From contig CAJQIG010000001.1 in the NCBI GenBank assembly GCA_905478415.1, forward strand, positions 245,892 to 309,891: DNA of 64,000 bases, given 5' to 3'. Positions 25,744 to 43,236 of this stretch are shown here, piece after piece (within the stretch, counting starts at the first letter, position 1; each line of letters starts with the position of its first letter). The DNA comes from an uncultured Patescibacteria group bacterium. GTDB lineage: Bacteria; Patescibacteriota; Microgenomatia; UBA1400; PJMF01. The notes below the pieces were generated by a model. The model saw only the letters and a program-made list of their open reading frames with translations. It was not told the DNA's origin and searched no databases. Position numbers and translations under genes: made by a program.

Positions 25744-25803
25744 ATTTTTATTATCCTTTATATTTTATATTTTTCTGAGTCATCTTCAAAATGAATTCTA
25801 CAA

Positions 25804-25929: not shown

Positions 25930-25930
25930 A

Positions 25931-25956: not shown

Positions 25957-26134
25957 AAAAAACAAGAGTTGTATTTTCTCTCTTGCCTAGATCCAGAGTA
26001 CTGATATAATCTGATACAATTTACTACCATAAGTAAATGTTATAACAAAGGCTGCCCACTTTAAGAGGTAGCTTTTTTTGTAACAACTGATATGCCTGCC
26101 AGCAATAAGATTAACATCGTTGAAAGGGTTGTAT

Positions 26135-28303: not shown

Positions 28304-28895
28304 AATTAGCTCTCGGAACCAAATTGCTATCAAAGAGGTACGTGATGGAATTTTAGTTTTACCTAACAACAAGCATCGTTTAATTATTGAAACCTCATCG
28401 GTAAACTTTGAGCTCAAAAGTGAGGTTGAACAAGATGTGCTGATTGATAGCTTTCAGACCTTTCTAAACTCATTGCCTAGCCAACTTCAAATCTTGATTC
28501 GTATTCGTGAAGTTGATATTGATCAGTATGTTGACTCTATCGAAATACTAAAACAAACAGAAAACAATCCCAAATATTTGGAACAAATTGATGACTACAC
28601 CCAGTTTATTAGGCAACTTGTATCTGGAAATAAAATATTATCTCGAAAATTCTATATTGTGCTCCCATATAAACCAAATAATAACAAAAACGCCTTTGAT
28701 CTTGCCAAAACACAACTAACTTTGACACAAGATATGGTGATAAAAGCTTTAGAAAAACTAGGCATGAAAGCTAGAACTCTAAGTAGTCTAGAAGTACTCA
28801 ACCTCTTCTATAGTTTTTATAACAAAGACCAAATCAAAACTCAGGAACTTAATCAAACAATTATGAAATCACTTTTACAACATAACTATGTTTAA
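28275..28895 (+). CDS. VirB4/TrbE-family ATPase, N-terminal segment (206 aa) as a separate ORF
   Basis: Perfect SD AAAGGAGGA 5 nt upstream. Sequence IKEVRDGILVLPNNKHRLIIETSSVNFELKSEVEQDVLIDSFQTFLNSL matches the N-terminal region of monoderm VirB4 (PrgJ/TraE-like). Ends with a TAA that overlaps the next ATG (ATGTTTAA). Confidence 0.6.
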   Translation: MWLLKKSLNKISSRNQIAIKEVRDGILVLPNNKHRLIIETSSVNFELKSEVEQDVLIDSFQTFLNSLPSQLQILIRIREVDIDQYVDSIEILKQTENNPKYLEQIDDYTQFIRQLVSGNKILSRKFYIVLPYKPNNNKNAFDLAKTQLTLTQDMVIKALEKLGMKARTLSSLEVLNLFYSFYNKDQIKTQELNQTIMKSLLQHNYV

Positions 28896-30702
28896 CACTA
28901 TTCAAATAAACTACCAAAACTTACAAAAATGGAAATCTAAACGCCTGCGAAAATATCGTGCAAAACAAGAAAAAAAACGTAGAGAAAAACTTTCTCTACA
29001 ATTTAGTTTTGGCGAACAAGACCAAGTGGATATGATTTCGTACTCAGGACTTATGGAAGAGTCTACCTATGTACAAATTGGCGATACCTTTGTAAGAACT
29101 CTATTTATTTCAGGCTATCCTTATGTAGCTAATGTTGGTTGGCTGAATATGTTGATCAACTTTAATCATGACCTTGATATTTCATACCATATTGAACATG
29201 TTGATCCCTTAATGGCTCTGCCTAAACTAAATCGCAAAATCACAGAACTTGAATCCACTAAAAGAACCATGCTTAAGGCAGGAAAAGTAATTGGTTCTGA
29301 GATCACAGACCCACTTGAGTCTGCCATGGAGCTAAAAGATAAAATCCAACGAGGCCAGGAGAAACTCTTTCAAATTTCCATCTACATGACTCTGAGTGCC
29401 ACAAGTTTTGAAGAACTGAACAAGACTACTCAAGTTTTGGAAACAATCATGGCTTCTAGAATGTTTTATATCAAGTCTGCCACCTTTCAACAGCTTGAAG
29501 GTCTGCAATCTATTCTGCCACGAGGAGAAAATTTACTTAATCAAAAAAGAAATCTAGATAGTTCAAGCGCTGCTTTAACTTTCCCATTTGTTTCATCAGA
29601 ACTAGTCCAAGAATCTGGTATTTTGTATGGCATTAACAAATCAAATAACTCGTTGGTTATTGTTGACAGATTTTCTCTCAATAATGCTAACTCAATTATC
29701 TTTGCTCAATCAGGGAGTGGTAAAAGCTACATTGCTAAAGTTGAGATTTTAAGACAACTCATGCAACAAACCAAAGTCATAGTGATTGACCCAGAGCGAG
29801 AATACAAACAGCTAGCAAAATCTATTGGTGGTACTTATATACGAATGTCAGCAACTTCAAAAGAAAAAATTAACCCTTTTGATTTTTCACTCAAGACTGT
29901 AACAGGACAAAATGGTCTTGCCGAACACATCCAAGATCTAACCGAGATTATTTCCCTGATGGCAGGCTCACTATCTGATGAAGAGCGAGCTGTGGTAGAT
30001 AAAGCCTTGATAAAAACATACAAACAGTTTGGCATCACCATGCGTAAACAAAAATATGAGGGGAAAATAAAATTTCCACTGTTAAAAGACTTTTATAAAA
30101 CGCTTAAAGCCATGAAACAAAAAGATCTATGCCACAGACTAGATAAGTTTGTGACTGGTTCACTATCTAGTGTATTTACCTCCCAAACCAACGTAGACCT
30201 CTCAAACCGACTTGTTGTCTTTGATATCAAAGATCTAGATGAATCCTTGAGACAAATCATGATTTTAGCCACTGCTAACTTTGTACACTCAGAGGTTAAA
30301 TCAAATCCTCAAAAACGAATCCTCGTGATCGATGAAGCTTGGTTGCTATTGCAACACGAAGAAAGTGCTCGGTTTTTAGCAGGCTTAGTAAGACGTGCTC
30401 GTAAACATTACTTAGGTGTCACTCTAATTTCCCAGCAAGCAAACGACTTTTTAAATCAAGAATATGGTAGAGCCATTGCCTCACAATCATCACTAAGAAT
30501 ATTGATGAAACAGGACACTACTTCTATCAAGAAAGTTGTCCAAGAGTTCAACTTAAGTGAATATGAACAGCAATTTTTACTAACCTGTGATCGAGGTGAG
30601 GCTCTAATTATTGCAGACCAAAATCATGTGGCGGTAAAAATTATAGCTTCTAAAAAAGAACACCCAATGCTTACCACTGATCCGAAAGACTTATACTTAT
30701 AA
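28888..30702 (+). CDS. VirB4/TrbE-family conjugation ATPase, C-terminal 604 aa with Walker A and B motifs
   Basis: Walker A FAQSGSGKSY and Walker B RILVIDEAWLL, plus the conserved middle region (FISGYPYVANVGWLNMLINFNHDLDISYHIE). No SD precedes this ATG, which suggests a frameshift or split within one VirB4 gene. Confidence 0.85.
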   Translation: MFNTIQINYQNLQKWKSKRLRKYRAKQEKKRREKLSLQFSFGEQDQVDMISYSGLMEESTYVQIGDTFVRTLFISGYPYVANVGWLNMLINFNHDLDISYHIEHVDPLMALPKLNRKITELESTKRTMLKAGKVIGSEITDPLESAMELKDKIQRGQEKLFQISIYMTLSATSFEELNKTTQVLETIMASRMFYIKSATFQQLEGLQSILPRGENLLNQKRNLDSSSAALTFPFVSSELVQESGILYGINKSNNSLVIVDRFSLNNANSIIFAQSGSGKSYIAKVEILRQLMQQTKVIVIDPEREYKQLAKSIGGTYIRMSATSKEKINPFDFSLKTVTGQNGLAEHIQDLTEIISLMAGSLSDEERAVVDKALIKTYKQFGITMRKQKYEGKIKFPLLKDFYKTLKAMKQKDLCHRLDKFVTGSLSSVFTSQTNVDLSNRLVVFDIKDLDESLRQIMILATANFVHSEVKSNPQKRILVIDEAWLLLQHEESARFLAGLVRRARKHYLGVTLISQQANDFLNQEYGRAIASQSSLRILMKQDTTSIKKVVQEFNLSEYEQQFLLTCDRGEALIIADQNHVAVKIIASKKEHPMLTTDPKDLYL

Positions 30703-31320
30703 ATGCATGCCATATTTACTGCACACACCATCTGGTCATTTAGAAAAGAACTTCAGTTTGTAGCTTTTGCCTTTTTAGTTTTAATTTCATTACCAATTAT
30801 TGCTGTAATTATTTTGACTCACACTGGAGTAAATATTGTTTCGGATGCTTTGATCGATGTTAATCCAGAATCTCAAACTATCCAAATTAAAAATCCAGCA
30901 GATGGAACAGTTGTAAAAGAAGTATCAAAGGAAGTGGCATGGCCAGTACAAGGTGTCACAACACTTGAGTTCGCCAAATCAAGTGGTTACCAAAAATTCC
31001 ATGCGGGAATAGATATTGCAAATTCACAAGGAAAAGTTGGTGATAAAATCACCCCATTTATGGAGGGAACTGTTATTTACGAAGGTGAAATATTTTGGGG
31101 TTATGGAAAACATGTGATTATTGATCATGGTGATAACATCACTTCTCTCTATGCTCATCTTAATAGAATTCAGGTTTTTAAAGGACAAAAAGTAAATGTG
31201 GGTGATACTATCGGAAATATGGGTAGCACTGGTTGGTCTACGGGGCCTCACTTGCATTTTGAGGTGAGGGTTTATGGGGTGCCGGTGAATCCGAAGGCGA
31301 TATTACAAGATACAAACTAG
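30703..31320 (+). CDS. M23-family (LytM-like) peptidoglycan endopeptidase with an N-terminal TM anchor; T4SS cell-wall hydrolase
   Basis: HAGIDIA ... GDTIGNMGSTGWSTGPHLHFEV, the HxxxD and HxH zinc motifs of peptidase M23. Confidence 0.85.
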   Translation: MHAIFTAHTIWSFRKELQFVAFAFLVLISLPIIAVIILTHTGVNIVSDALIDVNPESQTIQIKNPADGTVVKEVSKEVAWPVQGVTTLEFAKSSGYQKFHAGIDIANSQGKVGDKITPFMEGTVIYEGEIFWGYGKHVIIDHGDNITSLYAHLNRIQVFKGQKVNVGDTIGNMGSTGWSTGPHLHFEVRVYGVPVNPKAILQDTN

Positions 31321-31343: not shown

Positions 31344-34300
31344 ATGGATTTAAAAAAAATTGATTTTAAACATTTAGCTCCAAAGACTGGGGATCAACGT
31401 ACTTCTTTTGAAGAATTATGTTGTCAGATTGCTTTGTATTCAGATAATGTACCCAAAGACAGTAAACCACATCGCCTAAGGGGTGATGGTGGTGATGGTG
31501 GTGTTGAATTTTACTGGGAGCTTCCGAATGGTGAAGAGTGGGGATGGCAAGCAAAATATGTGTTTGATTTAGGTAAGGTTAAAACTCAAGCTAAAAAATC
31601 GTTTGAGACTGCGATGGTAGTTCATCCAAGATTAACACGTTATTTTATTTGTATACCTTTTGATTTAACTGGAAATACAAAAAGGGGGAAAGGTGAAACG
31701 GAAAAGTGGGAGGAATTTAAAAAGGAATTAGAGCAACTAGCAAAAAATGAGAAACGAAAAATAGAGGTAGTGCTAGAACAACGTTTTGAGCTCCTTGATA
31801 AGTTGCTCCAAATGGATCCTTCTTTGGGAAGAATTAGATTCTGGTTCGAAAAAGATTTATTTAGTGAAAAGTGGTTTGGAGAGCATGTAGCAACCACAGT
31901 GAATAATATTCCTAGATACACTCCCAAACTTAAGGTTGATACGGATTTATTTAGAAAGCTAATGGCATTCACTCAGACTGGTGGTTGGGCGGATGGTTTA
32001 AAAAAGATTTATGAGGAATTTAAAGATAAAGCATATTATTGGTCTTCCACTGTGGAAACAAAAGATGACAAAGGTTGGGGTGCAAAATTTCCCGAAGAGT
32101 TGGTTGAGCGGGGAAAGGTTAGTGTTGATAAGGTCAATGTTGTTAAAAAGGTCATTGAGGACCTCTTGGTACAAGAGATAGTCCCCAGTGATGTCACTGC
32201 GTTGTTAAATCAAATTGACGACGCAACCACATATTTAAGGGAGCTTTCTAGAGATATTCGGGCTCAACTCGTGGAACAGCACGGTGAGGCTGCAGTTGAA
32301 TCAGCTAATTTTAGACAATGGAATGCTGAATGGATGGTGAGCTTTCCGATGGCTAATTTAGACTCAAGTAAAGATTTAATAAATCTACTAGAACAAGTAA
32401 GACTCTGGGTTAAAGAAAACTATATCGATTTATATAACTCAAAACTTCTTTTGCTAACTGGAGGATGGGGTGTGGGCAAAACTTTTGCTATTTGTGACTT
32501 GGCTGAACTGAGAAGAGTAAACAAGCAGCTAACTGTTTTGTTGTTTGGAGATGGCTTTATCGGTGGTACTGAGCCATGGGTCAAGATTCAAGAGCAGCTA
32601 GGGATTAATTTTGACTCCAAAGAAGCACTATTTGAGGCACTAGAGACAAGTGCAGAAACCTCAGGTTTTCCCTTATTGTTGTGCATTGACGCAATAAACG
32701 AAACAGAACCTAAAAGCTACTGGCAGAAAAAGTTGAGATTATTGGCAGCAGAGATAGAAAAGTATCCAAACTTAAATCTTTGTGTATCCTGTAGAACATC
32801 ATATAAGGATTATTTAGTTAGGGATGAGGTTGGTTTCATTGAAGCGAAGCATCCGGGATTCAAGGGAATTGAAAATGAAGCAGTCAATGCTTTTTTTAAT
32901 CATTTTGGCATCAAACCTCCATCGACGCCAATTATTCATCCTGAGTTTTCTAACCCATTGTTTCTAAAACTTGTCTGTCAAACTTTGCAGGCAAAAGGGC
33001 TGAAACAAATGCCAAAAGGCTGGCAGGGAATTAACACGGTAATACAGGCGTTTTTAGATAATAAAAATAGAGAATACGGTGAACAAAATGGGATAGATAA
33101 ACGGCATAAAATACCAGAGAAGGCACTCCAGTCTTTCGTTGGTGAGGCAAAGAGATTGCAAAAATCACTTCTTACTTGGGATGAAGCAAATACTGCAGTA
33201 GGTGCTGTATTGAAAGAGTCGGGAGTTGAAAATAGCACAAAAACCCCCTTGCTGGATTGGCTTATTGATGAGCATCTTTTGTTTGTTGATGCGGCACCTG
33301 CTGGTAGCAATAAGGAGAGAGAGCATGTCAGGATATCATTTGAAAGGTTGGGAGATCATCTGCTTGCATCCAGCTTTATTGAAGGCAAGGATGAATCAAA
33401 TTTAAAGAAGGATTTTTTGAGTGAAGGTGATTTAAATTTCCTTGTGGCTGATGCCAGCAGCATAGAGTCGAATCGGGGGCTATTAGAAGCTCTTTCGATT
33501 CAAATACCAGAAAGATTTAATTTGGAACTGAGCGATATTGTAGAAAATGATATTTTGGTTCAAATATCTGATCTGGTTATAGAACAACTTCACTGGCGAG
33601 ACCCTTCATATTTTGGCTCAAAAACTAAAATTCTAATTAATCGTGCTTTAAGAAATCAGAAGTCTTATCTAGCATTTGATGCACTTTTACTCAGTTCCTT
33701 TACTCCTTCTGACATAGATGCTTATTTCTTAGATGATTTGTTAAGAGCTAAGACAATGATTCAAAGGGACCCTTATTGGTGTGGTTATTTGTATTCGAGA
33801 TATGGTGACAATGAAGAGGGTAAAGATCTAGTCAAGAGAATACTTAACAACTCATTAAATCAAGAAATTCAGAATATACCTGAAGATCGTTTGGAAAGAT
33901 GGTGTATCACTTTAGGTTGGTTTTGTGCTGCAGCTGATAGAAGAATCAGAGATGGGGCAACCAAGGCATTAATCAATATAACTCAGACTAATCCAGCGAT
34001 ATGGGAAAAACTACTGAAACATTTTGGATCACTTGATGACGACTATATTATTGAAAGAACGTTAGCTGCAGCTTATGGCGTGTTACTTCTAACTAGACAT
34101 AAACCCACAGAAAAGAAACTAGCGAAAGTGGTAGACAATGTAATTTTTTCAAAAGTTGAAGTAATACACAACGCCGTTATAAGAGACTATGCTCGTTGTA
34201 TCATCGAATTGGCTATTTTGGATAAGGCAATGGCAAAAAAAGATGTCAAAAATGCCTTCTTAACTCCATATGCAAGTGATCCAAAACTGTTAAGAATCCC

Positions 34301-35552
34301 GAGTGATAAGGAAATTGAGGATGCTGAGCCGTTAGTGGAAAAGACAAAGCTGAAACTAAGTTGCTTTAGTGATGATTTTTTTAATTACACACTCGGATCG
34401 TTACGCCAATATGATCATTTTATGAATAAGAAAAATATGGCTAAGTGGGTTTTTATTCACATAGTGAACTTGGGTTATAGTAGGGCTAATTTTGAAAACT
34501 ATGAAGGTTACATGATGTTCACTCATGGTGGAGGGAGAGGTAAGCCAATTTGGGCTGAGAGAATAGGTAAGAAATACCAATGGATGGCTTTATTTAGATT
34601 GGCAGGCTTATTATCTGACAATGTAGAAATTAAGGCTGATAGTTGGGAACCGGAGCCATTGGTAACTCCACTTTCATTTGAGCGTGGTAGGCAGATTGAC
34701 CCATCAATACTAGTTAAAGAGCCTCAAACCCAAGCCTTTTACGATGACGACTTGTTTTGCAGATATAATTTTGATTTAAAAGAAAAATTATCTGATGAGG
34801 AATGGATTAAGTTTAAAGATGATCTGCCAACATTTGGCGATATTCAGAAAGATCACGGGGGAAAAGACCATATTCTGCTTAATGGACATATGGATCAGTC
34901 TAATAAAGGTGAGTTTGATAAATCAAACAGCAAACATCGAAGGTTTTGGATGTTAATTGATAGCTACCTCGTGAATCAGGATGATATAGAAAAAGCATGG
35001 AATTGGTTGTCTAAAAAGAACTTTATGGGAAGATGGATGCCAGATGGTGCAGAACATCATGATGGTTTCATAGGAGAATATCCATGGGGTACTCCCTTCA
35101 ATATCTACAAAGACTCCTATCTTAGCTATGGTCGGGACCCAGATAATGAAAAGTTTCCTTGTACTTTTTTTCCTACTGACGCAACTTTGCACTCGAGCGA
35201 AGAATATGATTCCTCAGGGCATAGCAATTTTGTTATAAAGGTTCCATCAAAGATTTTTTTTGAGAAAAGTAAACTTGAATGGAACAATGTTGACGGGTAT
35301 AAGTCTGGCAACAAACTTGTTTTTTTAGATCCTTCAATTTGCTCAAAAAGGAAAGGTGCACTTTTGGTGGAAAAAAAGTACTTAAGGAATTTTCTAGATA
35401 AAAATGGTTACGTTTTGATTTGGACTGTATTGGCTGAAAAATTAATAATGGGGATTGATAACAGCTTCATCCGACAAACATTTAACCAAATTCATTTGTT
35501 AAATAACAAAGGAGAATTTGAATCTTCAGTACCCAATATACTAGTAAAGTAA
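31344..35552 (+). CDS. 1402-aa NACHT/STAND-like P-loop NTPase with an N-terminal restriction-endonuclease-like (PD-D/ExK-type) domain and a roughly 950-aa C-terminal sensor-like region
   Basis: Walker A LLLLTGGWGVGKTF (about aa 370), Walker B LLLCIDAINE, and a sensor-like CVSCRTS. The N-terminus GDGGDGGVEFYWE...EEWGWQAKY resembles D...(E/Q)xK nuclease motifs. The long C-terminal region is helical with no recognisable repeats. Confidence 0.7.
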   Translation: MDLKKIDFKHLAPKTGDQRTSFEELCCQIALYSDNVPKDSKPHRLRGDGGDGGVEFYWELPNGEEWGWQAKYVFDLGKVKTQAKKSFETAMVVHPRLTRYFICIPFDLTGNTKRGKGETEKWEEFKKELEQLAKNEKRKIEVVLEQRFELLDKLLQMDPSLGRIRFWFEKDLFSEKWFGEHVATTVNNIPRYTPKLKVDTDLFRKLMAFTQTGGWADGLKKIYEEFKDKAYYWSSTVETKDDKGWGAKFPEELVERGKVSVDKVNVVKKVIEDLLVQEIVPSDVTALLNQIDDATTYLRELSRDIRAQLVEQHGEAAVESANFRQWNAEWMVSFPMANLDSSKDLINLLEQVRLWVKENYIDLYNSKLLLLTGGWGVGKTFAICDLAELRRVNKQLTVLLFGDGFIGGTEPWVKIQEQLGINFDSKEALFEALETSAETSGFPLLLCIDAINETEPKSYWQKKLRLLAAEIEKYPNLNLCVSCRTSYKDYLVRDEVGFIEAKHPGFKGIENEAVNAFFNHFGIKPPSTPIIHPEFSNPLFLKLVCQTLQAKGLKQMPKGWQGINTVIQAFLDNKNREYGEQNGIDKRHKIPEKALQSFVGEAKRLQKSLLTWDEANTAVGAVLKESGVENSTKTPLLDWLIDEHLLFVDAAPAGSNKEREHVRISFERLGDHLLASSFIEGKDESNLKKDFLSEGDLNFLVADASSIESNRGLLEALSIQIPERFNLELSDIVENDILVQISDLVIEQLHWRDPSYFGSKTKILINRALRNQKSYLAFDALLLSSFTPSDIDAYFLDDLLRAKTMIQRDPYWCGYLYSRYGDNEEGKDLVKRILNNSLNQEIQNIPEDRLERWCITLGWFCAAADRRIRDGATKALINITQTNPAIWEKLLKHFGSLDDDYIIERTLAAAYGVLLLTRHKPTEKKLAKVVDNVIFSKVEVIHNAVIRDYARCIIELAILDKAMAKKDVKNAFLTPYASDPKLLRIPSDKEIEDAEPLVEKTKLKLSCFSDDFFNYTLGSLRQYDHFMNKKNMAKWVFIHIVNLGYSRANFENYEGYMMFTHGGGRGKPIWAERIGKKYQWMALFRLAGLLSDNVEIKADSWEPEPLVTPLSFERGRQIDPSILVKEPQTQAFYDDDLFCRYNFDLKEKLSDEEWIKFKDDLPTFGDIQKDHGGKDHILLNGHMDQSNKGEFDKSNSKHRRFWMLIDSYLVNQDDIEKAWNWLSKKNFMGRWMPDGAEHHDGFIGEYPWGTPFNIYKDSYLSYGRDPDNEKFPCTFFPTDATLHSSEEYDSSGHSNFVIKVPSKIFFEKSKLEWNNVDGYKSGNKLVFLDPSICSKRKGALLVEKKYLRNFLDKNGYVLIWTVLAEKLIMGIDNSFIRQTFNQIHLLNNKGEFESSVPNILVK

Positions 35553-35564
35553 TATAATATTCTT

Positions 35565-35771
35565 ATGGCATCACAACAAAAATTCGGACAAAACTTAAGA
35601 GTAGCTAGAAAAAAAGCTAACCTTACCCAACAGCAAATAGCTGACAAAGCTAAAATGCATGTTAATTATTATGCTCGTATTGAGCGTGGTGGGGAAAATC
35701 CTTCTTATGAAGCTCTAGAAAAGATAATTAAGGCCTTAGGCATAAAATCTTCAGAAGTCTTACCATTCTAA
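35565..35771 (+). CDS. XRE-family helix-turn-helix transcriptional regulator (68 aa)
   Basis: LRVARKKANLTQQQIADKAKMHVNYYARIERGGENPSYEALEKIIKALGI is a canonical Cro/C1 HTH. Starts 12 nt after the STAND gene stop. Confidence 0.75.
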   Translation: MASQQKFGQNLRVARKKANLTQQQIADKAKMHVNYYARIERGGENPSYEALEKIIKALGIKSSEVLPF

Positions 35772-35974
35772 CTATCTCTAGTAACTTCACCATCATCAGA
35801 TACTTTTAATTTTCCTGACTTAAGGTCTTCATCTACTTTATCTACTAAAACACCAGCCAACTGCATTAAACCTTTGACTGTTTTGATAGCATTTTCACGA
35901 GTAGCTTTTTTTGGATCTTTTTCCTCAAGCATTTTTAATGCCTTTTGAATTTCTTCTTCTGTTGGTTTTCTCAT
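35768..35974 (-). CDS. Small charged hypothetical protein (68 aa)
   Basis: ORF convergent with the HTH gene, preceded by the palindrome at 35994-36006. Confidence 0.35.
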   Translation of the reverse strand: MRKPTEEEIQKALKMLEEKDPKKATRENAIKTVKGLMQLAGVLVDKVDEDLKSGKLKVSDDGEVTRDS

Positions 35975-35993
35975 TTTTTCTTTCTAAATGTGT

Positions 35994-36006
35994 TGATAGT
36001 CTATCA
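35994..36006. promoter_or_regulatory. Perfect 13-bp palindrome TGATAGTCTATCA; operator candidate
   Basis: TGATAG/CTATCA arms around a single T. Located 20 nt upstream of the minus-strand ATG at 35974 and downstream of the PLD gene. Confidence 0.35.
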
Positions 36007-36011
36007 TGAAA

Positions 36012-36467
36012 TTAAATAAATCTCTCGAGTTTTAGAAAATTAAACATCTTCTTAGCATGACCATCACCAATTATTCTACGCATAACTTCTTTACTATTAT
36101 TCTGTGAGAGTATATTTAAACTACCTTCCCACAAAACTTCTCTATCTATAATAGCTAACTTACGGTGATGATTATTTGTAGTTACAAAAACCTGCACACC
36201 AATTCTTTCAAAATATTCAATTACTTCTTCAGCTTGATACCTCATGTCTTTTAAATGTTTCTTTGGATCTCTGGTAATCACATATACCTTTACACCTTTA
36301 GAAATCAGTTTTTCAAAAACAGAACAAAGCTTGAGGGTTCTACCATTTGTAATAAATGGACTTTCAATCACGACTTCACGTTCTGCGTGAAGTAAATCTC
36401 TCTCAAACTGTTTATAAAAAGTTGTCTCGTCAAAAAGTGAAGTTTTAAACATTTTGTTTCTCCTCAT
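36012..36467 (-). CDS. Phospholipase-D-family nuclease (single HKD domain, Nuc/NucT-like endonuclease)
   Basis: HxK(x)4D motif in NNHHRKLAIIDREVLWEGSLN (H-R-K-L-A-I-I-D). Size is about 150 aa, like the pKM101 Nuc protein. Confidence 0.8.
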   Translation of the reverse strand: MRRNKMFKTSLFDETTFYKQFERDLLHAEREVVIESPFITNGRTLKLCSVFEKLISKGVKVYVITRDPKKHLKDMRYQAEEVIEYFERIGVQVFVTTNNHHRKLAIIDREVLWEGSLNILSQNNSKEVMRRIIGDGHAKKMFNFLKLERFI

Positions 36468-36485
36468 CTATCTTATCATTATATA

Positions 36486-36545
36486 TAAGACGCAGCCTCT
36501 CGAGGTTTTCAAGAAATGGTTCAAACTGAGTTACCTTAGGGTCAC
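36486..36545. repeat. 60-bp direct repeat, copy A (51/60 identical to copy B at 37803-37862); upstream element of the PLD nuclease gene
   Basis: TAAGACGCAGCCTCTCGAGGTTTTCAAGAAATGGTTCAAACTGAGTTACCTTAGGGTCAC. On the minus strand it carries a -35-like TTGAAA followed 18 nt later by TTATAT(ATAAT). Confidence 0.7.
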
Positions 36546-36594
36546 CAAAGGAGACCGTTCCAAAACTCAACAAATTAGATAAACGAGCAACTCT

Positions 36595-37653
36595 TTACTC
36601 AAAATGCTTTGTATAAAATTCAACTGTTCTCTGCATTGCTAAAGAAAAGCTAGGATCTTCTATATTGTGCCCACCATTTGGATATTCCCATAGTTCTATT
36701 TTAAGATTAGATTCTTTAGTTTTTTCTACTAAGTTTCTACTATATTCAATACTTACTACAGAGTCATTTACAGCATGATGAATCTGAATTGCGGAGTTGG
36801 AGTCTTTGAGGTATTCAATTGGCGACACTTCATTCCAGAATAAACTATCTGAAGAGAATGTTCCATGAATATCAAAAAGCCTTTCCCTTTCTTCTTTTTT
36901 ATTATAGTTAATATCTTGTTTAATATATGAACTATCATTGATAGCATAGTCTTTCATGTCTTGATATGTATACACTGCTCCAGCCCAAATAACACCAGTG
37001 GTAATTTCTGGTCTAGCTGCCATAGTTCTTGATACAATATTTCCGGCCATACTATGTCCCCACAAGCCAATTTTAGATGGATTTACAAAATCAGTTTGCT
37101 GTAAAGCAGTCTGAGCATTCATAACATCTCTAATATAGTCACTAGAATAATATGCTCCATGTGCGTCACCTTCAGATTCTCCATGACCACGCAAATCAAT
37201 TTTAAAAACTACAAAACCACTTCGTGCTAAATAATCAACGTACTCAACATATTTACTTAAAGTCTTATATTGATCTGGAGGAATGTATCCATGAATAAAA
37301 ATTATTGCAGGCCAACCATCACTGGGCTGTTCACCATCAGGAATCGTAAGCAATCCATCAATTTTAAAATCATCTGAAACATAGTTCGTTAAGTAACTAG
37401 TATACTTAGAATTTTGTGATATTTGGTCTAACTCTCCTAACTGACTCTCATAGTAGTACTTCCTCAGATAAGGAATCGTTAACTCCTCAAATGGAACAGT
37501 ATCTTGTACTAAATTTTGATTCGTAGTAAACTCAGTTTCACTTGATTTACTAGATATTTTAGAATTACTTTGATCAGTTCTTATAACAATCAAAAGAATT
37601 ATTGTAAAAATAAATAGAATAAAAATGAACATCAATACATATTTTTGTCTCAT
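36595..37653 (-). CDS. Membrane-anchored alpha/beta hydrolase (S9/dienelactone-hydrolase-like esterase or peptidase)
   Basis: N-terminal TM (LMFIFILFIFTIILLIVI). Nucleophile elbow GLWGHSMAGN (GxSxG), IIFIHGY, and Asp/His downstream (HHAVNDSV...GGHN). Confidence 0.75.
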   Translation of the reverse strand: MRQKYVLMFIFILFIFTIILLIVIRTDQSNSKISSKSSETEFTTNQNLVQDTVPFEELTIPYLRKYYYESQLGELDQISQNSKYTSYLTNYVSDDFKIDGLLTIPDGEQPSDGWPAIIFIHGYIPPDQYKTLSKYVEYVDYLARSGFVVFKIDLRGHGESEGDAHGAYYSSDYIRDVMNAQTALQQTDFVNPSKIGLWGHSMAGNIVSRTMAARPEITTGVIWAGAVYTYQDMKDYAINDSSYIKQDINYNKKEERERLFDIHGTFSSDSLFWNEVSPIEYLKDSNSAIQIHHAVNDSVVSIEYSRNLVEKTKESNLKIELWEYPNGGHNIEDPSFSLAMQRTVEFYTKHFE

Positions 37654-37802
37654 AATACATATTCTATAGTAATAGCATGAGAAATTACTGAGAACATCAT
37701 TGCTCTAGATACTATTTACAAACCTTTTCTATCATTAAAAAAACTTAACAATTAATAATTACTTGGAAAATAAAAATTTATTTGAATTTTTTTCACAATA
37801 TC

Positions 37803-37862
37803 TAAGACGTAGCTCCTCGAGTTTTTCTAAAAATGGTTCAAGCTGAGTTGCTTTAGGGTCAC
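37803..37862. repeat. 60-bp direct repeat, copy B; upstream element of the alpha/beta-hydrolase gene
   Basis: TAAGACGTAGCTCCTCGAGTTTTTCTAAAAATGGTTCAAGCTGAGTTGCTTTAGGGTCAC. 85% identical to copy A, in the same orientation and the same position relative to the downstream gene. Confidence 0.7.
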
Positions 37863-37871: not shown

Positions 37872-37897
37872 ATACACGCTACATGCGTGTTTTTTTA
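37872..37897. terminator. Bidirectional Rho-independent terminator-like hairpin (A-tract, ACACGC-TACAT-GCGTGT stem-loop, T7 tract)
   Basis: 6-bp GC-containing stem with a 5-nt loop, flanked by AAAAAT and TTTTTTT. Sits between the attR-side repeat and the hydrolase promoter. Confidence 0.5.
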
Positions 37898-38028
37898 TTG
37901 TTTGTTCTTGCAGTGGAAATTAATCACTGAACGTAGTGAAGTAGTTCTGCCACATGGTGAGTGACACCTGTCACGAACCAGGTTAATGCATGTGAGCGTC
38001 ATCAAGTAGATATAGATTGCAAATCGTA

Positions 38029-38051
38029 GATTCTGCGTGGAGTCACATAAA
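38029..38051 (+). repeat. attR-side direct repeat of the tRNA-Glu 3' end (displaced or decayed copy)
   Basis: See the mobile_element entry. The one mismatch would break acceptor-stem pairing, consistent with a non-functional remnant. Confidence 0.65.
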
Positions 38052-38298: not shown

Positions 38299-39582
38299 AT
38301 GGAAGAAAAGTTTAAAAAACAATTATGTTTAATGCCTGAGACACACAATCGCCTAAACCAAGCTTTTGTACTTTTTCAAGGTATTAAAGATAACTATCAC
38401 GATGAACTATTATTTACATCCAATTTAAATAATATAATCCAAGCACTGAGAAATGTTACTTTTGTAATGCAAAAAGAGCTTGCGCATACAGAGGGATTTG
38501 AAAACTGGTACAAAAAGAAACAAGATGAAATGCGAGAAGACAAATATCTTAGATGGTCTGTTAAAGCAAGAAACCATGTCGTAAAAGAAGGAGACTTAAA
38601 AAAATTTAGCTACACAAAAGTCAGATTGAAAAACCATTTTGACACAGAACTTTTTGGGGATAGATTAGATCATAAAATATCATTAGGGCATATAGCTGAT
38701 TGGTTTAGACAAAAAGTAAAAATTCCCAAAGAAATTAAGGACTACGCAATAATTGAGGCCGAGCGTATATGGATAATTGAAGACTTTCCTGAATCAGAAG
38801 TTATTGACATAATCATTTACTGCTTTGGATTACTTACTAACCTGGTTTACTTAGCCCATGAAGAGGTACTAGGTATTAATTCACTAGCATGTGAGAAGAA
38901 TACCTATGTTTCTGCTGACGAGGATTATATGGTGAAACTACACAACACCATTGCTGAAGGAAGAATCAATCAAATCTCATATAGTTCTGGTGCAATAATG
39001 ACTAGATCAAGCTTACGAATCACCCTCGCTGAAGATTCATTTAATGAGGTATATAAGAGGTATTCAAAACTTGAAGCAATATTAGAACTAAGTAAAGTAG
39101 AAGCTGGAGACTTACCATTCAACAAAATTCCATACCATATTGAGACCGCAAAACACTTCCTAGAAGTGGATGGTAGTATAATGCCCACTGTTTTTCTTTA
39201 CTTCACAGATAAGCCACCCATAATTCAGGCTTTAGGTTTTAGTCGGCCTACCGACAGGTATTTAATTGCTGAAGATATAGCAAAAAAGATTACGGAGACA
39301 CAATGTGCCGCTGTTGTGTTGGTCACTGAGACTTGGCATGGCAAAATGCCAAAAAATGGAGAAAAATATATTCCTGCATCAGTACAGAAAGCAGGCGAAA
39401 GTATTAGTGTATTCGCTTCATCACCAAAAAGATTAGACAGGTACTCGGTCGAAATCTTACGTGATAAAAATAATAAATCTATAATTGGCGAAGAGAACCA
39501 CAGTAAAAATATGAATCCTGACAACGTACCCTTTTTTAATCGTATCTATGATGTTTGGGCAGATGTAGAGTGGGCAAAATAA
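38299..39582 (+). CDS. Hypothetical cytosolic protein (427 aa), a lone gene in the islet between att-like repeats
   Basis: Long ORF with no TM segments and no recognisable motif. Upstream palindrome TACTCTCAATAGAGTA at about 38255-38270. Confidence 0.5.
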   Translation: MEEKFKKQLCLMPETHNRLNQAFVLFQGIKDNYHDELLFTSNLNNIIQALRNVTFVMQKELAHTEGFENWYKKKQDEMREDKYLRWSVKARNHVVKEGDLKKFSYTKVRLKNHFDTELFGDRLDHKISLGHIADWFRQKVKIPKEIKDYAIIEAERIWIIEDFPESEVIDIIIYCFGLLTNLVYLAHEEVLGINSLACEKNTYVSADEDYMVKLHNTIAEGRINQISYSSGAIMTRSSLRITLAEDSFNEVYKRYSKLEAILELSKVEAGDLPFNKIPYHIETAKHFLEVDGSIMPTVFLYFTDKPPIIQALGFSRPTDRYLIAEDIAKKITETQCAAVVLVTETWHGKMPKNGEKYIPASVQKAGESISVFASSPKRLDRYSVEILRDKNNKSIIGEENHSKNMNPDNVPFFNRIYDVWADVEWAK

Positions 39583-39826
39583 GTTAATTATTTTATGGTA
39601 AGGGTGCATTCTTACGTTGAGTGAAAACTAGACATTTTATATAAAATTTGTTCTCATCACATTAGCCTTATACTCAGTATTTACTTGTTCAAATCCCTAA
39701 ACAGAGTCGTTAAACCCGAGTTACTTGATATCTATTATAAAAGTATCGAACAGATCAACTAAATTAGAAATAACAGAGTTCGGATTCGTGAAGGTTAGGC
39801 TCACCTTGAGGTAATTTTCTCACCTT

Positions 39827-40399
39827 TTATTTTTTATCCGAATTAACTTTGTTTAACTCCATAAGATAAGTGTCTTCTGTATCACCATCCAGCCTTACCG
39901 TCTTAATATACTTAAATCCGACCTTTTCATAAACATGAATAGCTCTTGTATTGCTTGGTTCAGGACCAATCACACACAATTTAATTTTTGGATCAACAAA
40001 AACAACCTGATTCAAAAATTCTGAAAGCATCAAAGATCCAAAACCTTTACCTATATAGCTTTTATCACCTAAAAATAAATCTATGCTTTCAACACTATCA
40101 TCGTAATCTAATATGTTAGACCAATCCTCCCAATCTTTTATAAAGTACTTTTGTATATAACCAACTGGTTTGTTATCATACAAAACATAAAAACAATCAG
40201 TTGGTTTCTCACCTTTAATCTTAGGTAAATATCTTCTTGAAACATTATCTAAAGTAATTTCTTTATCTTTATCATAGAACTCATGAACATGAGAGCTGCG
40301 AAGCCATTTGAAAAGAAGCTTGAGATCTCCAGCAACTAAAGGTCTAAATGTAATTTTTTGTTTATCAAAATGATTGTTCATATATATTGATCTTATCAC
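39827..40399 (-). CDS. GNAT acetyltransferase with AAC(6')-type aminoglycoside N-acetyltransferase motifs
   Basis: Motif blocks recalled from AAC(6')-Ie: LKLLFKWLRSSHVHEFY, PVGYIQKY, FLGDKSYIGKGFGSLMLSEFL, GPEPSNTRAIHVYEKVGFKYI, EDTYLMEL. The probable true start is the ATG at 40381 (MNNHF); 40399 is a GTG. Confidence 0.65.
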   Translation of the reverse strand: MIRSIYMNNHFDKQKITFRPLVAGDLKLLFKWLRSSHVHEFYDKDKEITLDNVSRRYLPKIKGEKPTDCFYVLYDNKPVGYIQKYFIKDWEDWSNILDYDDSVESIDLFLGDKSYIGKGFGSLMLSEFLNQVVFVDPKIKLCVIGPEPSNTRAIHVYEKVGFKYIKTVRLDGDTEDTYLMELNKVNSDKK

Positions 40400-40701
40400 T
40401 ATAATATGTAAAAGGTTTATTGTTCAATTACTGGTAGGAATGTATGTAGTTGGCAGGATACTACAGGTTATTCACATCTGGAGCAAAGATTGTTAAGTAC
40501 TCAACCAGATCAGCTATTACTCTGTTCGGATTCTGGATCTCTAGGGTCTCAAAGCAATTAAGTATTAAGAATATTATATTTTTTATGTATTCTGTTACTT
40601 CTGGCGACATTATATACAATTTTTTGTTAAATTTATAAGAAATTAGTGCGATAATGTATTTGAGCTCCATATTTCATATCTTTTTGCTAAAATGTACCTA
40701 A

Positions 40702-41445
40702 ATGCTTACAAACATCTCACACACTGCTTTTTTATCAGCTCCACTTATTTCTCTCTTAGATGACAATCTAAAGGCAAAAAAGAAAGAACATCAAGATCAT
40801 CACCAATTCTATGCTCGAATTGTTCAGATAGCAGCGCAACACCAAGTCTCTGTCTATGAACCTTCAAAGTATATGGATCCAGACCTGCATGATTATATTC
40901 GTCCAGAACAAATCTATCAAAAAAATAGGGATATCATCCGTACTAGTGATCTACTTATTGCTTATGTGGGAAAAGTATCTGCAGGAGTTGGAATGGAAAT
41001 TGAAATTGCAAATTCTTTTCGTATACCTGTTATTTTGCTCTATGAAAATGATTCATATAATAAAGTAAGCAGAATGGTATTAGGTTGTAGAATGGCAAAA
41101 CATCAAATTTCAGCTAATTCACTTTTAGAACTAAGTACTTCATTTGAAAATAAATTCCCTTCAATACTTTCTGAGATTGAAGAAGAGAGAATGTATGTAC
41201 TTACTCCTAAAAAAACAAATCTAATCAAACAACTAGTTGCTATTCATAACGCTTCATCCCTCAGCATTGGACAAGTAGCAATAAGAGCAAGCATAGACAA
41301 AAGTTATATTTCTCGTTTACTCAACGAAAAAATCAGTAATCCTGGTAGGGATCAAATAATTAGACTTTGTGCCTGGGGTTGGAAAATTGACTTTGCTCGC
41401 ACCAATGAATTACTACACGATGCAGGGTATGAACAACTCTGGTAA
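40702..41445 (+). CDS. Fusion protein: N-terminal nucleoside-2-deoxyribosyltransferase-like (NDT/SLOG-fold) domain plus C-terminal XRE-type HTH
   Basis: NDT-like core SDLLIAYVGKVSAGVGMEIEIANSFRIPVILLYE. C-terminal HTH SIGQVAIRASIDKSYISRLLNEK. Confidence 0.5.
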   Translation: MLTNISHTAFLSAPLISLLDDNLKAKKKEHQDHHQFYARIVQIAAQHQVSVYEPSKYMDPDLHDYIRPEQIYQKNRDIIRTSDLLIAYVGKVSAGVGMEIEIANSFRIPVILLYENDSYNKVSRMVLGCRMAKHQISANSLLELSTSFENKFPSILSEIEEERMYVLTPKKTNLIKQLVAIHNASSLSIGQVAIRASIDKSYISRLLNEKISNPGRDQIIRLCAWGWKIDFARTNELLHDAGYEQLW

Positions 41446-41525
41446 GGTTGTTTTTTATTGTTCATGCAACGGTCTTCAACAGATTTTCTAGAATCATGCT
41501 GTTATTATTCTTTCAACGCTAAAGT

Positions 41526-42305
41526 TTGGAGAAAAATATGTGCTTAGAAAACAAATCACAATGCCCACACATGAATGCTGTACAAGAAAAACTTACACAA
41601 CATACAGAGTACGATACTGTCCATACTAACGCAGACTTAAATGAGGATGATAAAACTATATCAATACAAAACCTTTGGCATAAAAAAGGGTATAACGGCT
41701 GTATCTTTTCACAAGTTATTGCGCAGTCTCCCTCAGAATATGAATGGCAGGCTTCTGTGGTTCATAACTTAGATAGTACTAGTGGTCAAGAAATAGATAG
41801 CTTAATTAACCAAGCAATTGAAAACCCCGCAGTGCGATTATTAAGTATCATTTTTCCTACAGTTCAAACACAAGAAGATCTTACTAGATTAGTCGAAATT
41901 TTATGCTATGAAACAGCCAGTATGCACCTTCTTAATGACGAATCATTAAATAGCTTTGTTGCATTATCTTTCAGAGTAGCATTAGAAAATGATGAGGTAT
42001 TAGCATGGGTCATGGGATTTGGCCCACACGAATCTTTTGCTAAAACTAGACAATCACCATATACTGAAATTGTAATTCCAGTTAAACCAAAACCTGATGA
42101 TACGTATCATAGGCACAATAATGATAAAAGCTCTGCTCATGTTGCAGATCAACATATTGATCTTGATGAGAAAGTAATGGATCGACTTTGGGATAATACT
42201 TACAAAAAAACTAGAAAAGTATTAGGTCACGAACCAGATCTTTTTTCCGGAGCAAGAACTACATTTACTATACCTGAAAATGATTGGGTAAAAATTAAAC
42301 GCTAA
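41526..42305 (+). CDS. Hypothetical protein (259 aa); possible YqcI/YcgG-like family member
   Basis: Conserved-looking KGYNGCIFSQ and WVMGFGPHESF blocks. Family assignment is from memory only. Confidence 0.35.
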   Translation: MEKNMCLENKSQCPHMNAVQEKLTQHTEYDTVHTNADLNEDDKTISIQNLWHKKGYNGCIFSQVIAQSPSEYEWQASVVHNLDSTSGQEIDSLINQAIENPAVRLLSIIFPTVQTQEDLTRLVEILCYETASMHLLNDESLNSFVALSFRVALENDEVLAWVMGFGPHESFAKTRQSPYTEIVIPVKPKPDDTYHRHNNDKSSAHVADQHIDLDEKVMDRLWDNTYKKTRKVLGHEPDLFSGARTTFTIPENDWVKIKR

Positions 42306-42313
42306 AGGAAAAT

Positions 42314-42829
42314 ATGTCAGTAGAAAGAAACTTTAAATTATCAGAGTATGATCTCAAAACCTACACTCTCATTTATCTAATAAGTCAGGGCATGATCTTA
42401 CTCTTGCAAAGAGATGATGGCAAATCAGATATGGCTGGAAAAATCACAGGCCTTGGTGGAAAAATTGAGCAAGGTGAATCACTACTAGACTCTGCAAAAA
42501 GAGAATTTTATGAAGAAAGTGGTTTACACATTCACGACCCAGAGTTAAAAGGCACCTTTCAATGGTTAGATGAATCTAAAAAGATATGCATGACACACAT
42601 CATATTTGCACGCCAATATTCTGGAGAATTACTAGAAGAAAATCGAGAGGGAATCTTAGCTTGGTATCTTATAGCAAAACTACAAGAAATTGAAACATTG
42701 GCACAATACCAAATGATGTTTTTACCTTATCTTCTGGAAGATAGTAACCATTTTTACTCTGGCATAGGGGAATTTAGAAATGAAGAATTGATAGATTATA
42801 TTGATTCAAAAGGAGGAAAGAATGTCTGA
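42314..42829 (+). CDS. NUDIX hydrolase
   Basis: Nudix box GGKIEQGESLLDSAKREFYEESGL (Gx5Ex7REUxEExGU). Confidence 0.85.
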   Translation: MSVERNFKLSEYDLKTYTLIYLISQGMILLLQRDDGKSDMAGKITGLGGKIEQGESLLDSAKREFYEESGLHIHDPELKGTFQWLDESKKICMTHIIFARQYSGELLEENREGILAWYLIAKLQEIETLAQYQMMFLPYLLEDSNHFYSGIGEFRNEELIDYIDSKGGKNV

Positions 42830-43226
42830 GAAAATTACTATTTGTGGTTCGATGCAATTTGCGAAAGAAATGATTCATCTTAAACATCAACTGGAAGATT
42901 TAGGCTGGATTGTCCTTACACCAGATTTTTCAGAAAAATCATCTACATATGAAAGTCTTCCATCCGACGAAAAAATAGAAGTAAAAAAGGAAATGATTAG
43001 TAACCACTTTAGTCGTATCAAACAATCAACAGCAATTCTTGTAGCAAATTATGATAAAAAAGGAATTAAGGGATATACTGGCTCAAATACACTTATGGAA
43101 ATTGCGGTAGCCCATGTTCTACAGATAGAAATTTATGTTCTCAACACACTTGGTGAACAAGTATGTCAAGAAGAAGTAACTGCTCTTACAACTAGATTTC
43201 TCGATGGTAACTTAAAAAATATCTAA
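42822..43226 (+). CDS. Nucleoside-2-deoxyribosyltransferase-like (NDT/YtoQ/SLOG-fold) protein, 134 aa
   Basis: Perfect SD AGGAGGA 4 nt before the ATG at 42822. Pattern KITICGSMQF...GWIVLTPD...AILVANYDKKGIKGYTGSNTLMEIAVAH matches NDT-fold proteins. Confidence 0.5.
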   Translation: MSEKITICGSMQFAKEMIHLKHQLEDLGWIVLTPDFSEKSSTYESLPSDEKIEVKKEMISNHFSRIKQSTAILVANYDKKGIKGYTGSNTLMEIAVAHVLQIEIYVLNTLGEQVCQEEVTALTTRFLDGNLKNI

Positions 43227-43236
43227 ACATCTTACA

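Follow-up and report, generated by a model that had tools for sequence, protein, structure and literature searches.

We analysed a 64,000-nt stretch of DNA from an uncultured Patescibacteria group bacterium (GenBank assembly GCA_905478415.1, contig CAJQIG010000001.1, forward-strand positions 245,892 to 309,891; hereafter "the window", whose own numbering we use), focusing on positions 31344-37862. This region lies in a ~28-kb integrative and conjugative element (ICE) that a Microgenomates-type patescibacterium carries at a tRNA-Glu gene. A first-pass annotation had proposed that the region encodes a novel composite system, in which a STAND (signal transduction ATPases with numerous domains) nuclease would work with a co-regulated phospholipase D (PLD) nuclease and an esterase. 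Our analysis indicates instead, with high confidence, that three unrelated evolutionary units lie side by side: a gene for the antiviral STAND NTPase Avs2, carried as interchangeable cargo; a backbone trio encoding a helix-turn-helix (HTH) protein, a small 68-aa protein and a PLD-superfamily protein; and an add-on unit with an alpha/beta-hydrolase gene. In this interpretation, nothing ties Avs2 functionally to the PLD protein or the hydrolase.

The identification of the 1402-aa protein (31344-35552, plus strand), the sole cargo gene of its slot, draws on matches in PADLOC, the Protein Data Bank (PDB) and NCBIfam. In hidden Markov model searches, the PADLOC Avs2 model PDLC02164 matched with E=2.5e-303, and PDLC02162 spanned residues 5-1390 of the 1402 (E=1.5e-217), a family-profile match over most of the protein's length. 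The solved structure of EcAvs2 (PDB 9o4e) aligned with residues 350-1025 (E=2.2e-102), and a profile built from residues 1-345 pushed the homology with EcAvs2 back to approximately residue 174. The NCBIfam model NF041813 matched residues 190-1027 only (E=4.7e-230, 766.9 bits). Pfam is nearly blind to this protein, giving a sub-threshold NPHP3_N match only. Database relatives, 484 in number and each ~1400 aa long, come from many phyla and are all unnamed; most are ~35-40% identical to the window protein, and the closest two are 56% and 41% identical. On the strength of these matches, the 1402-aa protein is a divergent newcomer to the already known Avs2 (AVAST type 2) family, consistent with its earlier description as an Avs-type antiviral STAND NTPase with a restriction-endonuclease-like N-terminus. 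Avs2 proteins sense the large terminase of phages, tetramerise via their ATPase and switch on an N-terminal effector, and Avs2 is the most widespread Avs family, with many different effector domains (PMC13601566).

The restriction-endonuclease-like motif set and the GGWGVGKT and LLLCIDAINE motifs from which that description started are all present in the open reading frame (ORF). A candidate PD-(D/E)xK nuclease effector domain occupies residues ~1-157 (31344-31814, plus strand), with D51, E55 and Q69-x-K71 as candidate catalytic residues, and the structural model of the N-terminus adopts the PD-(D/E)xK nuclease fold. Walker A (GGWGVGKT) spans residues 373-380 and Walker B (LLLCIDAINE) residues 444-453; the STAND NTPase segment that they delimit lies at 32460-32702 (plus strand) and aligns with the EcAvs2 ATPase. 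Across 26 homologues, the candidate catalytic residues D51, E55 and Q69-x-K71 are invariant, as are the GGDGGVE, GWQ.K and GxxGxGKT motifs and the Walker residues G373, G376, G378, K379, T380, D449, N452 and E453. The modelled fold indicates that the N-terminus is a predicted PD-(D/E)xK nuclease and a putative cell-killing effector; searches of the Avs2 sensor for protease families in Pfam and PADLOC gave no match.

Like EcAvs2 and KpAvs2, the window protein has a tripartite layout of effector, STAND ATPase and tetratricopeptide repeat (TPR) plus C-terminal sensor within ~1400 aa, and its profile and pairwise homology with them is strong across the linker, ATPase and TPR regions. It also resembles other Avs2 systems in being a single gene without a conserved neighbour and in its broad horizontal spread. 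Whereas the effector of EcAvs2 is uncharacterised, that of the window protein has a predicted PD-(D/E)xK fold like the effectors of Avs3 and Avs4, and, unlike the characterised Avs2 genes, the window gene is ICE-borne in a patescibacterium. By analogy with its homologues, the C-terminal TPR/sensor region would bind a conserved phage protein, the canonical trigger being the ATPase domain of the large terminase; the STAND NTPase would then drive ATP-dependent tetramerisation, uniting four N-terminal PD-(D/E)xK nuclease domains, which once assembled would degrade DNA and abort the infection.

The composite system proposed earlier is contradicted by the neighbourhoods of related genes. A metagenome scan supplied 77 Avs2-anchored loci, to which we added those of the relatives at 56% and 41% identity. 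We searched the resulting 79 by tblastn with the HTH, 68-aa, PLD and hydrolase proteins of the window; none of the four was found in any of them. Clustering of 356 ORFs neighbouring Avs2 relatives yielded no family present in more than 3 of the 79 loci, the few recurrent families stemming from near-duplicate contigs, and the genes beside the two closest relatives are unrelated. In the opposite direction, Avs2 was absent from all 88 of the loci (L004-L091) that we anchored on the PLD gene. The STAND gene was thus never found together with the PLD or hydrolase gene in related loci, and with zero co-occurrence in both directions the proposal of a STAND nuclease working with a co-regulated PLD nuclease and esterase fails. 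Avs2 is met in these comparisons as a stand-alone gene, predicted to function without an obligatory partner in its nuclease-effector form.

What surrounds Avs2 is instead explained by the PLD-anchored loci, in which the gene order is constant: PLD, 200-320 nt with a small ORF, a convergent HTH gene, a slot, an M23 peptidase gene and VirB4. The HTH gene was detected in 76 of the 88 loci, M23 in 49, VirB4 in 45 and the hydrolase in one, the last being a distant homologue (23% identity) 5.6 kb away. In the window, the left flank of the slot is an M23 peptidase gene (30703-31320, plus strand; Peptidase_M23 E=9e-32), the last gene of the type IV secretion system (T4SS) cluster, and the right flank is the HTH gene. 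Nucleotide homology between the window and a sister element (L004) is 87% up to 31348, within 5 nt of the Avs2 ATG (31344), breaks there, and returns at 91% from 35564, 1 nt before the HTH ATG (35565). Because these breakpoints flank the two start codons, the segment swapped between the elements is the Avs2 ORF almost to the base. Judged from these alignments, Avs2 is interchangeable cargo, and the HTH, small and PLD genes are backbone of a family of Patescibacteria T4SS clusters and ICEs.

Both flanks of the slot are present in 48 loci; the slot is empty in six (L031, L039, L047, L052, L060 and L084), where it measures 60-105 nt, and reaches 8.4 kb at its largest. Among the 87 slot proteins are matches to GajA (E=4e-210), QatA (2e-271) and a type I restriction enzyme (6e-172), together with IetS, AriA/PtuA/Old-type ATPases, a Mokosh/Hhe-like helicase, SMODS with Cap15, SduA_C, AbiEii, ABC-3C CTD10 and KAP NTPases. 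By type, the slot systems across loci comprise Gabija, Qat, Ietat, type I restriction-modification (R-M), CBASS, Shedu and AbiE, and the slot also holds metal-resistance genes, for zinc (ZnuA), arsenic (ArsP) and chromate transporters. Several large slot proteins, among them those of 818 aa (L014) and 799 aa (L070), have no PADLOC match and could be new defence genes. Outside the slot, ~6 kb past the PLD gene of the sister element (L004:1-668, contig k141_287066), there is a 1383-aa, STAND-like nuclease protein with HTH_3, Mrr_cat and ATPase_2 domains. The PLD-bearing loci are almost wholly Microgenomates-type (Pacebacteria, Levy-, Davies-, Shapiro-, Woese- and Gottesmanbacteria, and WWE3). 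Many (L012, L014, L015, L018 and others) come from metagenome-assembled genome records titled "uncultured Pseudomonadales/Gammaproteobacteria bacterium" (binchicken co-assemblies), which is probably placeholder or wrong taxonomy.

Defence-bearing ICE hotspots are already known from SXT elements (bioRxiv 10.1101/2020.12.16.423150). As in the SXT/R391 hotspots, such as hotspot 5, varied defence systems occupy a fixed intergenic site between backbone genes, and empty versions exist; by contrast, the family described here has a monoderm-type (MPF-FATA-like) Patescibacteria T4SS and a serine rather than a tyrosine recombinase, and its slot is flanked by M23 peptidase and HTH genes. A further difference from SXT/R391 is that many members of the family look like chromosomal T4SS clusters without a relaxase; Patescibacteria T4SS clusters have recently been described as mostly chromosomal, relaxase-less and co-opted for other functions (PMC12102498). 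In the text and two supplementary files of that survey, PLD, recombinase and defence cargo are not mentioned, and the two files contain no PLDc, PF13091, HTH_3, Peptidase_M23 or Resolvase.

The HTH protein of the backbone (35565-35771, plus strand; 68 aa, XRE/Cro type, HTH_3 E=4.6e-15) begins 12 nt past the Avs2 stop codon, as first annotated. A TATAAT box (35553-35558, plus strand) lies 6 nt 5' of its start codon, forming a leaderless-type promoter, and in most related loci (L010-L089 compared) a TATAAT or TATACT box is found 5-8 nt 5' of the HTH ATG, whatever the slot cargo. Given this spacing, the HTH mRNA appears to be leaderless, and since the HTH gene carries its own TATAAT box its expression should be independent of the cargo gene. 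The best PADLOC match of the protein is "Control_protein" (E=1.9e-15), and in NCBIfam it matches RstR-family (1e-13) and TrbA (1e-5) models, both under cutoff. It resembles R-M controller (C) proteins and RstR/TrbA repressors in its length, HTH_3 domain, "Control_protein" match and leaderless-type promoter. It differs from R-M controllers in that no R-M system adjoins it, its family matches fall below cutoffs and it is a conserved backbone gene of the ICE; no C-box was identified near it in a search limited to local inverted repeats.

The second backbone protein (35768-35974, minus strand), also of 68 aa, is convergent with the HTH gene, with a 4-nt overlap, and has no Pfam, PADLOC or NCBIfam match. 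Homologues were detected between the PLD and HTH genes in 24 of the 88 loci, and most loci keep a spacing of 200-320 nt there. The perfect 13-bp palindrome to which the first-pass annotation had drawn attention is indeed present in front of this gene (TGATAG-T-CTATCA, 35994-36006, minus strand), overlapping an extended -10-like box (TGATAGACT). Its kind does not exceed chance in number, the window holding 25 perfect 6-N1-6 palindromes against a mean of 24.5 in shuffled sequence, and its exact form is confined to the nearest relatives (the L004 group); we therefore rejected it as a specific operator signal. What is conserved at this position across the family, past the PLD stop, is TGnTAnACT or TATAAT, sometimes with a looser TGATAG-N7-9-CTATCA inverted repeat.

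The third backbone gene encodes a 146-aa single-HKD protein of the PLD superfamily, Nuc/Zucchini-like (36012-36452, minus strand; PLDc_2 E=6.9e-12). The ORF was first called at 36012-36467, and we place its true start at M6 (36452) on the grounds of the 146-aa length of its relatives and of a GAGGAG ribosome-binding site ahead of this codon. More than 4300 homologues exist at 60-95% identity, mostly 146 aa long, and the H-x-K-x4-D...G-S-x-N motif (HRKLAIID...GSLN) is invariant across 28 sequences. The closest solved structures are mitoPLD/Zucchini, at a marginal E of ~1e-3, with no match to Nuc; because these matches are marginal, we claim membership no further than the HKD superfamily, and regard the protein as a predicted single-HKD member with putative nuclease activity. 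It shares with Nuc (of pKM101) and Zucchini/mitoPLD a single HKD domain of ~150 aa and an intact HxKx4D...GSxN motif, and Nuc, like the window PLD, is encoded beside the T4SS genes of a conjugative element. Unlike Nuc, the window protein has no signal peptide that can be read from its sequence, and its similarity to solved members of the superfamily is marginal. At the domain level it matches the C-terminal PLD region of MkoC (1e-12) and DrmC (3e-7) in PADLOC. We rejected its assignment as DISARM DrmC or Mokosh MkoC, since the partner genes (DrmA, DrmB and methyltransferase; the MkoA/B helicase fusion) are absent from the window and the 88 related loci. The hydrolase, PLD and 68-aa ORFs are all present on the minus strand as first described, but their characterisation as operon-like is not supported: they come from different evolutionary units, and the 68-aa ORF has a -10 box of its own.

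The element that carries this backbone has the features expected of an ICE: a recombinase, a T4SS, a coupling protein, a relaxase-type protein and repeats at a tRNA gene, from which conjugation is predicted. Between tRNA-Glu(CTC) (9456-9529, plus strand; ARAGORN and Rfam), the integration target (attL), and an 18-nt repeat of its 3' end lie genes for a serine recombinase, a coupling protein, a Replic_Relax protein, copper-resistance cargo, T4SS pilins, PrgI, VirB4 and the M23 peptidase. The relaxase assignment rests solely on Replic_Relax (PF13814, E=1e-13). With the tRNA-Glu, direct repeat, recombinase and T4SS genes all in place, the earlier location of the region at the distal end of an ICE is upheld. 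VirB4 is a single 604-aa ORF in the window (28888-30702). A near-identical contig (L001, 7546-9359) has it split between ORFs of 166 and 438 aa, which reflects either a frameshift variant or an error of assembly.

The repeat upstream of the PLD and hydrolase genes, described initially as a 60-bp element carried by both and taken as a sign of co-regulation, does exist. Its two copies (36473-36545 and 37790-37862) are 73 nt long and 82% identical. They are not equivalently placed, however; copy 1 abuts and overlaps the PLD start, and copy 2 lies 137-209 nt 5' of the hydrolase start. Each belongs to a coding tail that was recognised by sequence comparison and starts at a GTGACCC core. Tail copy 1 (36445-36545, minus strand) reads GDP-KVTQFEPFLENLERLRLIYNDKIDEEKQNV and ends in a stop codon that overlaps the PLD start; tail copy 2 (37759-37862, minus strand; core at 37856-37862) reads CDP-KATQLEPFLEKLEELRLRYCEKNSNKFLFSK followed by a stop. 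In most of the 88 loci the tail sequence directly precedes the PLD start, with two copies in L012 and three in L013. On the PLD strand it forms an open frame of 25-35 codons whose stop overlaps the PLD ATG, and it falls into two related classes. Variation in the tails is concentrated at third codon positions (entropy 16.4, 15.5 and 27.5 at positions 1, 2 and 3), and a start codon 5' of the conserved part is usually absent.

Both the conservation of the tail and all backbone homology begin exactly at GTGACCC (36545), the reverse complement of a tRNA 3' end; in comparisons with L004, L010, L012 and L013 the homology breaks at 36545, and in other loci the tail adjoins a tRNA gene (His, Pro, Glu, Lys, Gly) or a recombinase gene. 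We conclude that the repeat is probably attachment-junction and recombinase-tail sequence and not a regulatory element shared by the hydrolase and PLD genes. An Rfam scan of the whole window at gathering thresholds returned tRNA-Glu only, and no RNA family accounts for the repeat. Three other explanations for the repeat were considered. A degenerate tRNA gene was rejected, as only a 7-9-nt core resembles a tRNA 3' end, with no T-arm pairing. An ORF on the antisense strand was rejected because tail copy 2 has an in-frame stop on the plus strand. Descent from the recombinase that adjoins the tail in L004 is only partly right, that recombinase being a distant paralogue that stops inside the core. 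L004 itself has, adjoining the PLD tail, an XerC/D-type tyrosine recombinase and another, distantly related, serine recombinase.

The recombinase of the window (9482-11047, minus strand; 521 aa, with Resolvase, Recombinase and Zn_ribbon_recom domains) is a large serine recombinase, XisF/CcrB-like by NCBIfam, and its last 15 codons (GDPTQNRTAVTRMRT, then a stop) are antisense of tRNA-Glu. Its C-terminus reads ...ALGDP-TQNRTAVTRMRT before the stop, and its GGT GAC CCC is the tail core in the same codon phase; indeed, the codon phase of the core is identical at attL and in both tails. Among 134 full-length recombinase representatives (P0361-P0510 searched), 84 have antisense-tRNA-like C-termini, as against 0-3 in internal control windows, and 6 end in in-frame tails of the same type, as against 0-1 in the controls. 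Of these six, P0370 is encoded beside terminase genes on a phage-like contig that is not integrated. In L066 an in-frame recombinase tail abuts the PLD gene. Read together, these sequences suggest that attP lies within the recombinase ORF and that the tail is exchanged on integration and excision. Because the tail shares the codon phase of the recombinase, excision would replace the last 12, tRNA-encoded residues of the enzyme with tail 2, in frame. The predicted circular junction, ...GTCGCTTTAGGTGACCCTAAAGCAACTCAGCTTGAACC..., would join the 3' end of the recombinase gene to tail 2, and the predicted empty site would read tRNA-Glu ...GATTCTGCGTGGGGTCACACAATAAAAATACACGCTACATGCGTG.

Recombinases that carry the attachment site in their own ORF are known in the form of SSV-type ("suicidal") tyrosine integrases of archaeal viruses and plasmids (PMC7253208), which likewise target tRNA genes; because the attachment site lies inside the ORF, integration alters the recombinase coding sequence. 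The window enzyme differs in being a bacterial large serine recombinase in which only the last ~12-30 codons would be exchanged, such that the integrated recombinase loses none of its catalytic or DNA-binding domains and probably remains active. A limited literature search found no description of serine recombinases with attP inside their own gene, although one may exist.

This arrangement bears on where the element ends. The repeat that had been placed at attR is present as an 18-nt copy of the tRNA-Glu 3' end (GATTCTGCGTGGAGTCAC; 38029-38046, plus strand; found by repeat search) in a weaker tRNA-like remnant, but the logic of the junctions puts the right end elsewhere. The arms at the core are recombinase and tRNA at attL; terminator/flank and tail at tail 2; recombinase-like sequence and tail at tail 1, which is attP-like; and flank and tRNA-like sequence at 38029-38046. 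The functional right end of the element is probably the core GTGACCC at 37856-37862. Eleven nucleotides outside it, a terminator scan detected a bidirectional intrinsic terminator hairpin (37874-37890), probably the native tRNA-Glu terminator displaced by the insertion. This hairpin is the only feature that stands out in a promoter and terminator scan of the window; consensus promoter matches were fewer in the window (24) than in shuffled sequence (36) and are uninformative. The degenerate tRNA-Glu-like remnant (37975-38046) ends in the 18-nt repeat, 167 nt beyond the core, and a ~45-codon open frame (37895-38005, minus strand) runs through it.

The third unit is the 1317-nt segment bounded by the two tails (36546-37862), which contains tail copy 2 and the gene for a 352-aa membrane-anchored alpha/beta-hydrolase, similar to S9/S33 peptidases and esterases (36595-37653, minus strand; Hydrolase_4 2e-18, Peptidase_S9 1e-12), with one transmembrane or hydrophobic segment at its N-terminus. 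More than 5600 homologues occur in Microgenomates, amid ordinary chromosomal genes. Given these generic settings and the lack of a PADLOC match, we rejected the hydrolase as a defence effector. Directly before the core of tail 1, nine codons (LLSFGTVSF; 36546-36573, minus strand) resemble a recombinase 3' end over a short stretch (QGVALGDP compared with GTVSFGDP), and are probably the remnant of a second recombinase gene. The 1317-nt unit as a whole is best explained as the remains of another element or cassette that had integrated at this attachment site. In L013 (7300-10005), reiterated tails bound single-gene units of ~1.2-1.3 kb by the PLD gene, with a Fic-domain gene, a gene for a 314-aa unknown protein and a HIT-like gene. 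The tail arrays of L013, L012 (8750-10005) and the window (36445-37862) resemble the serial accretion of small cassettes at one core.

We tentatively propose, as a possibility to which we give less than even weight, that Microgenomates-type T4SS clusters and ICEs share an undescribed modular design. This would combine a defence and metal-resistance slot between M23 and HTH with an attachment junction by the PLD gene, with attP in the 3' end of the serine recombinase gene. Integration would swap a C-terminal tail of ~30 residues for a tRNA-encoded peptide, and repeated insertions would leave ~1.3-kb single-gene units with their own tail copies, such as the hydrolase unit in the window and the Fic, HIT and unknown genes in L013.

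Several observations weigh against our interpretation of the region. The NF041813 score of Avs2 (766.9 bits) does not reach the equivalog cutoff of 1000 bits, and it is because of such scores under the cutoff that all 484 database relatives are labelled "hypothetical protein"; the model was built on Avs2 proteins whose effector and sensor ends differ. Over the C-terminal 380 residues only a PADLOC sub-model matches, and not the solved EcAvs2, and the homologues from which trigger and nuclease activity are taken are at most ~35-40% identical. At least 2.5 kb of flank is available downstream in 34 of the 79 Avs2 loci and upstream in 38, and because many contigs are short the absence of partners can be scored on only ~35-40 loci per side. 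The trio might interact in a general way with whatever occupies the slot, for example through regulation of the cargo by the HTH protein. Lastly, the recombinases of L037, L075 and L088 enter the tail in another frame, and that of L004 stops inside the core.

These points have to be set against the alternatives. That Avs2, HTH, PLD, esterase and 68-aa protein form a two-part immunity or abortive-infection system, co-regulated through the repeat and the palindrome, fits the adjacency of all the genes within 6.5 kb, the weak matches of the PLD domain to the defence-associated DrmC and MkoC models, and the genuine repeat 5' of both PLD and hydrolase. We nonetheless consider it very improbable, given that Avs2 and the other genes do not co-occur whichever is used as anchor, that the edges of the cargo swap coincide with those of the Avs2 ORF, that the repeat is a family-wide junction and tail under coding constraint and not specific to PLD and hydrolase, that the palindrome is neither conserved nor above chance frequency, and that the hydrolase belongs to a generic family of chromosomal settings without a PADLOC match. 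More improbable still, to the point of being barely worth entertaining, is that the hydrolase is a latent death effector licensed by Avs2, in the manner of the protease-activated metallo-beta-lactamase (MBL) and alpha/beta-hydrolase zymogens found beside some Avs2 and Avs4 proteins. Multi-gene Avs2 systems are known, as in VcAvs2 with MBL, and protease-associated alpha/beta-hydrolase effectors have been described (PMC12642450; bioRxiv 10.64898/2026.08.25.746987). In such systems, whether Avs2-trypsin-MBL or protease with alpha/beta-hydrolase zymogen, the sensor needs a protease effector domain (PMC12642450); none was found in the window Avs2, which carries a predicted nuclease domain instead. 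Moreover, the hydrolase is membrane-anchored, convergent and 1 kb distant in a separate add-on unit, its homologues sit in ordinary chromosomal settings, and it is missing from every Avs2-anchored locus. A generic role for the trio as an element module is unlikely, though less so than either of these. The HTH protein could keep toxic cargo or the T4SS operon repressed, or the PLD protein could serve as an entry/exclusion or DNA-processing nuclease, a role for which Nuc on pKM101 is the model. The trio borders the slot in 76 of the 88 loci regardless of cargo, and the HTH protein resembles R-M controllers and RstR/TrbA repressors and has a leaderless-type promoter, a kind common among such small repressors; an inverted repeat over the -10 box of the small gene is also partly conserved. 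Conversely, the HTH gene lies downstream of the cargo, with no operator found 5' of Avs2 or the T4SS genes, the six empty-slot loci retain the trio, which hence does not depend on cargo, every HTH family match is under its curated cutoff, and the PLD protein lacks the signal peptide of Nuc.

The most serious alternative concerns the tail, which could be an independent micro-ORF (~30-40 aa) or leader peptide, translationally coupled to the downstream gene, rather than a recombinase tail and junction. We think this somewhat unlikely, and it stays a live alternative because the recombinases adjacent to the tail in L037, L075, L088 and L004 are not in its frame. The overlap of the stop with the PLD start (..AATGTTTAA) in many loci, the coding-type wobble in the tail and the V, L or M before a conserved E in class-2 tails, a possible start codon, all favour it. 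Class-1 tails, however, which include the relatives of the window copies in L010 and L012, have no canonical start codon 5' of the conserved part; conservation and backbone homology start exactly at the tRNA-like core, which tRNA or recombinase genes abut; some recombinase homologues, namely L066, P0370 and five more, do carry in-frame tails; and copy 2 is not coupled to the hydrolase, whose start lies 106 nt further on. We therefore favour the interpretation of the repeat as attachment junction and recombinase tail, within a region of three unrelated units.

Beyond the element, the window contains a paralogous copper-resistance region (44600-55000) with 72-81% nucleotide identity to the ICE cargo at 23860-25980 (repeat families D1-D7), including a multicopper oxidase gene, a DUF302-like gene and others. 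Just outside the right end (38299-43932) are genes for a 427-aa protein without a family match, a GNAT acetyltransferase, a 259-aa unknown protein and a NUDIX hydrolase, and, at 40702-41445, a nucleoside 2-deoxyribosyltransferase-like (Nuc_deoxyrib_tr) domain fused to an HTH. Neither PADLOC nor NCBIfam gave a match for this fusion protein or for the 427-aa and 259-aa proteins, and 38299-43932 may be another accessory or defence-like islet.

Patescibacteria are often called defence-poor, yet here they carry a classical pattern-recognition, NLR-like sensor, predicted to be delivered by a conjugative element. At least one T4SS sub-family of these bacteria holds a defined cargo hotspot with many known defence systems, together with integration and conjugation genes, and searches for new defence genes in uncultured, ultra-small bacteria could usefully start from this hotspot. 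The layout of recombinase, tRNA and tail may be a serine-recombinase equivalent, in bacteria, of the SSV-type integrases of archaea, which are split when they integrate. If the exchange of tails is as we propose, it could act as a built-in switch for the directionality or activity of the recombinase.

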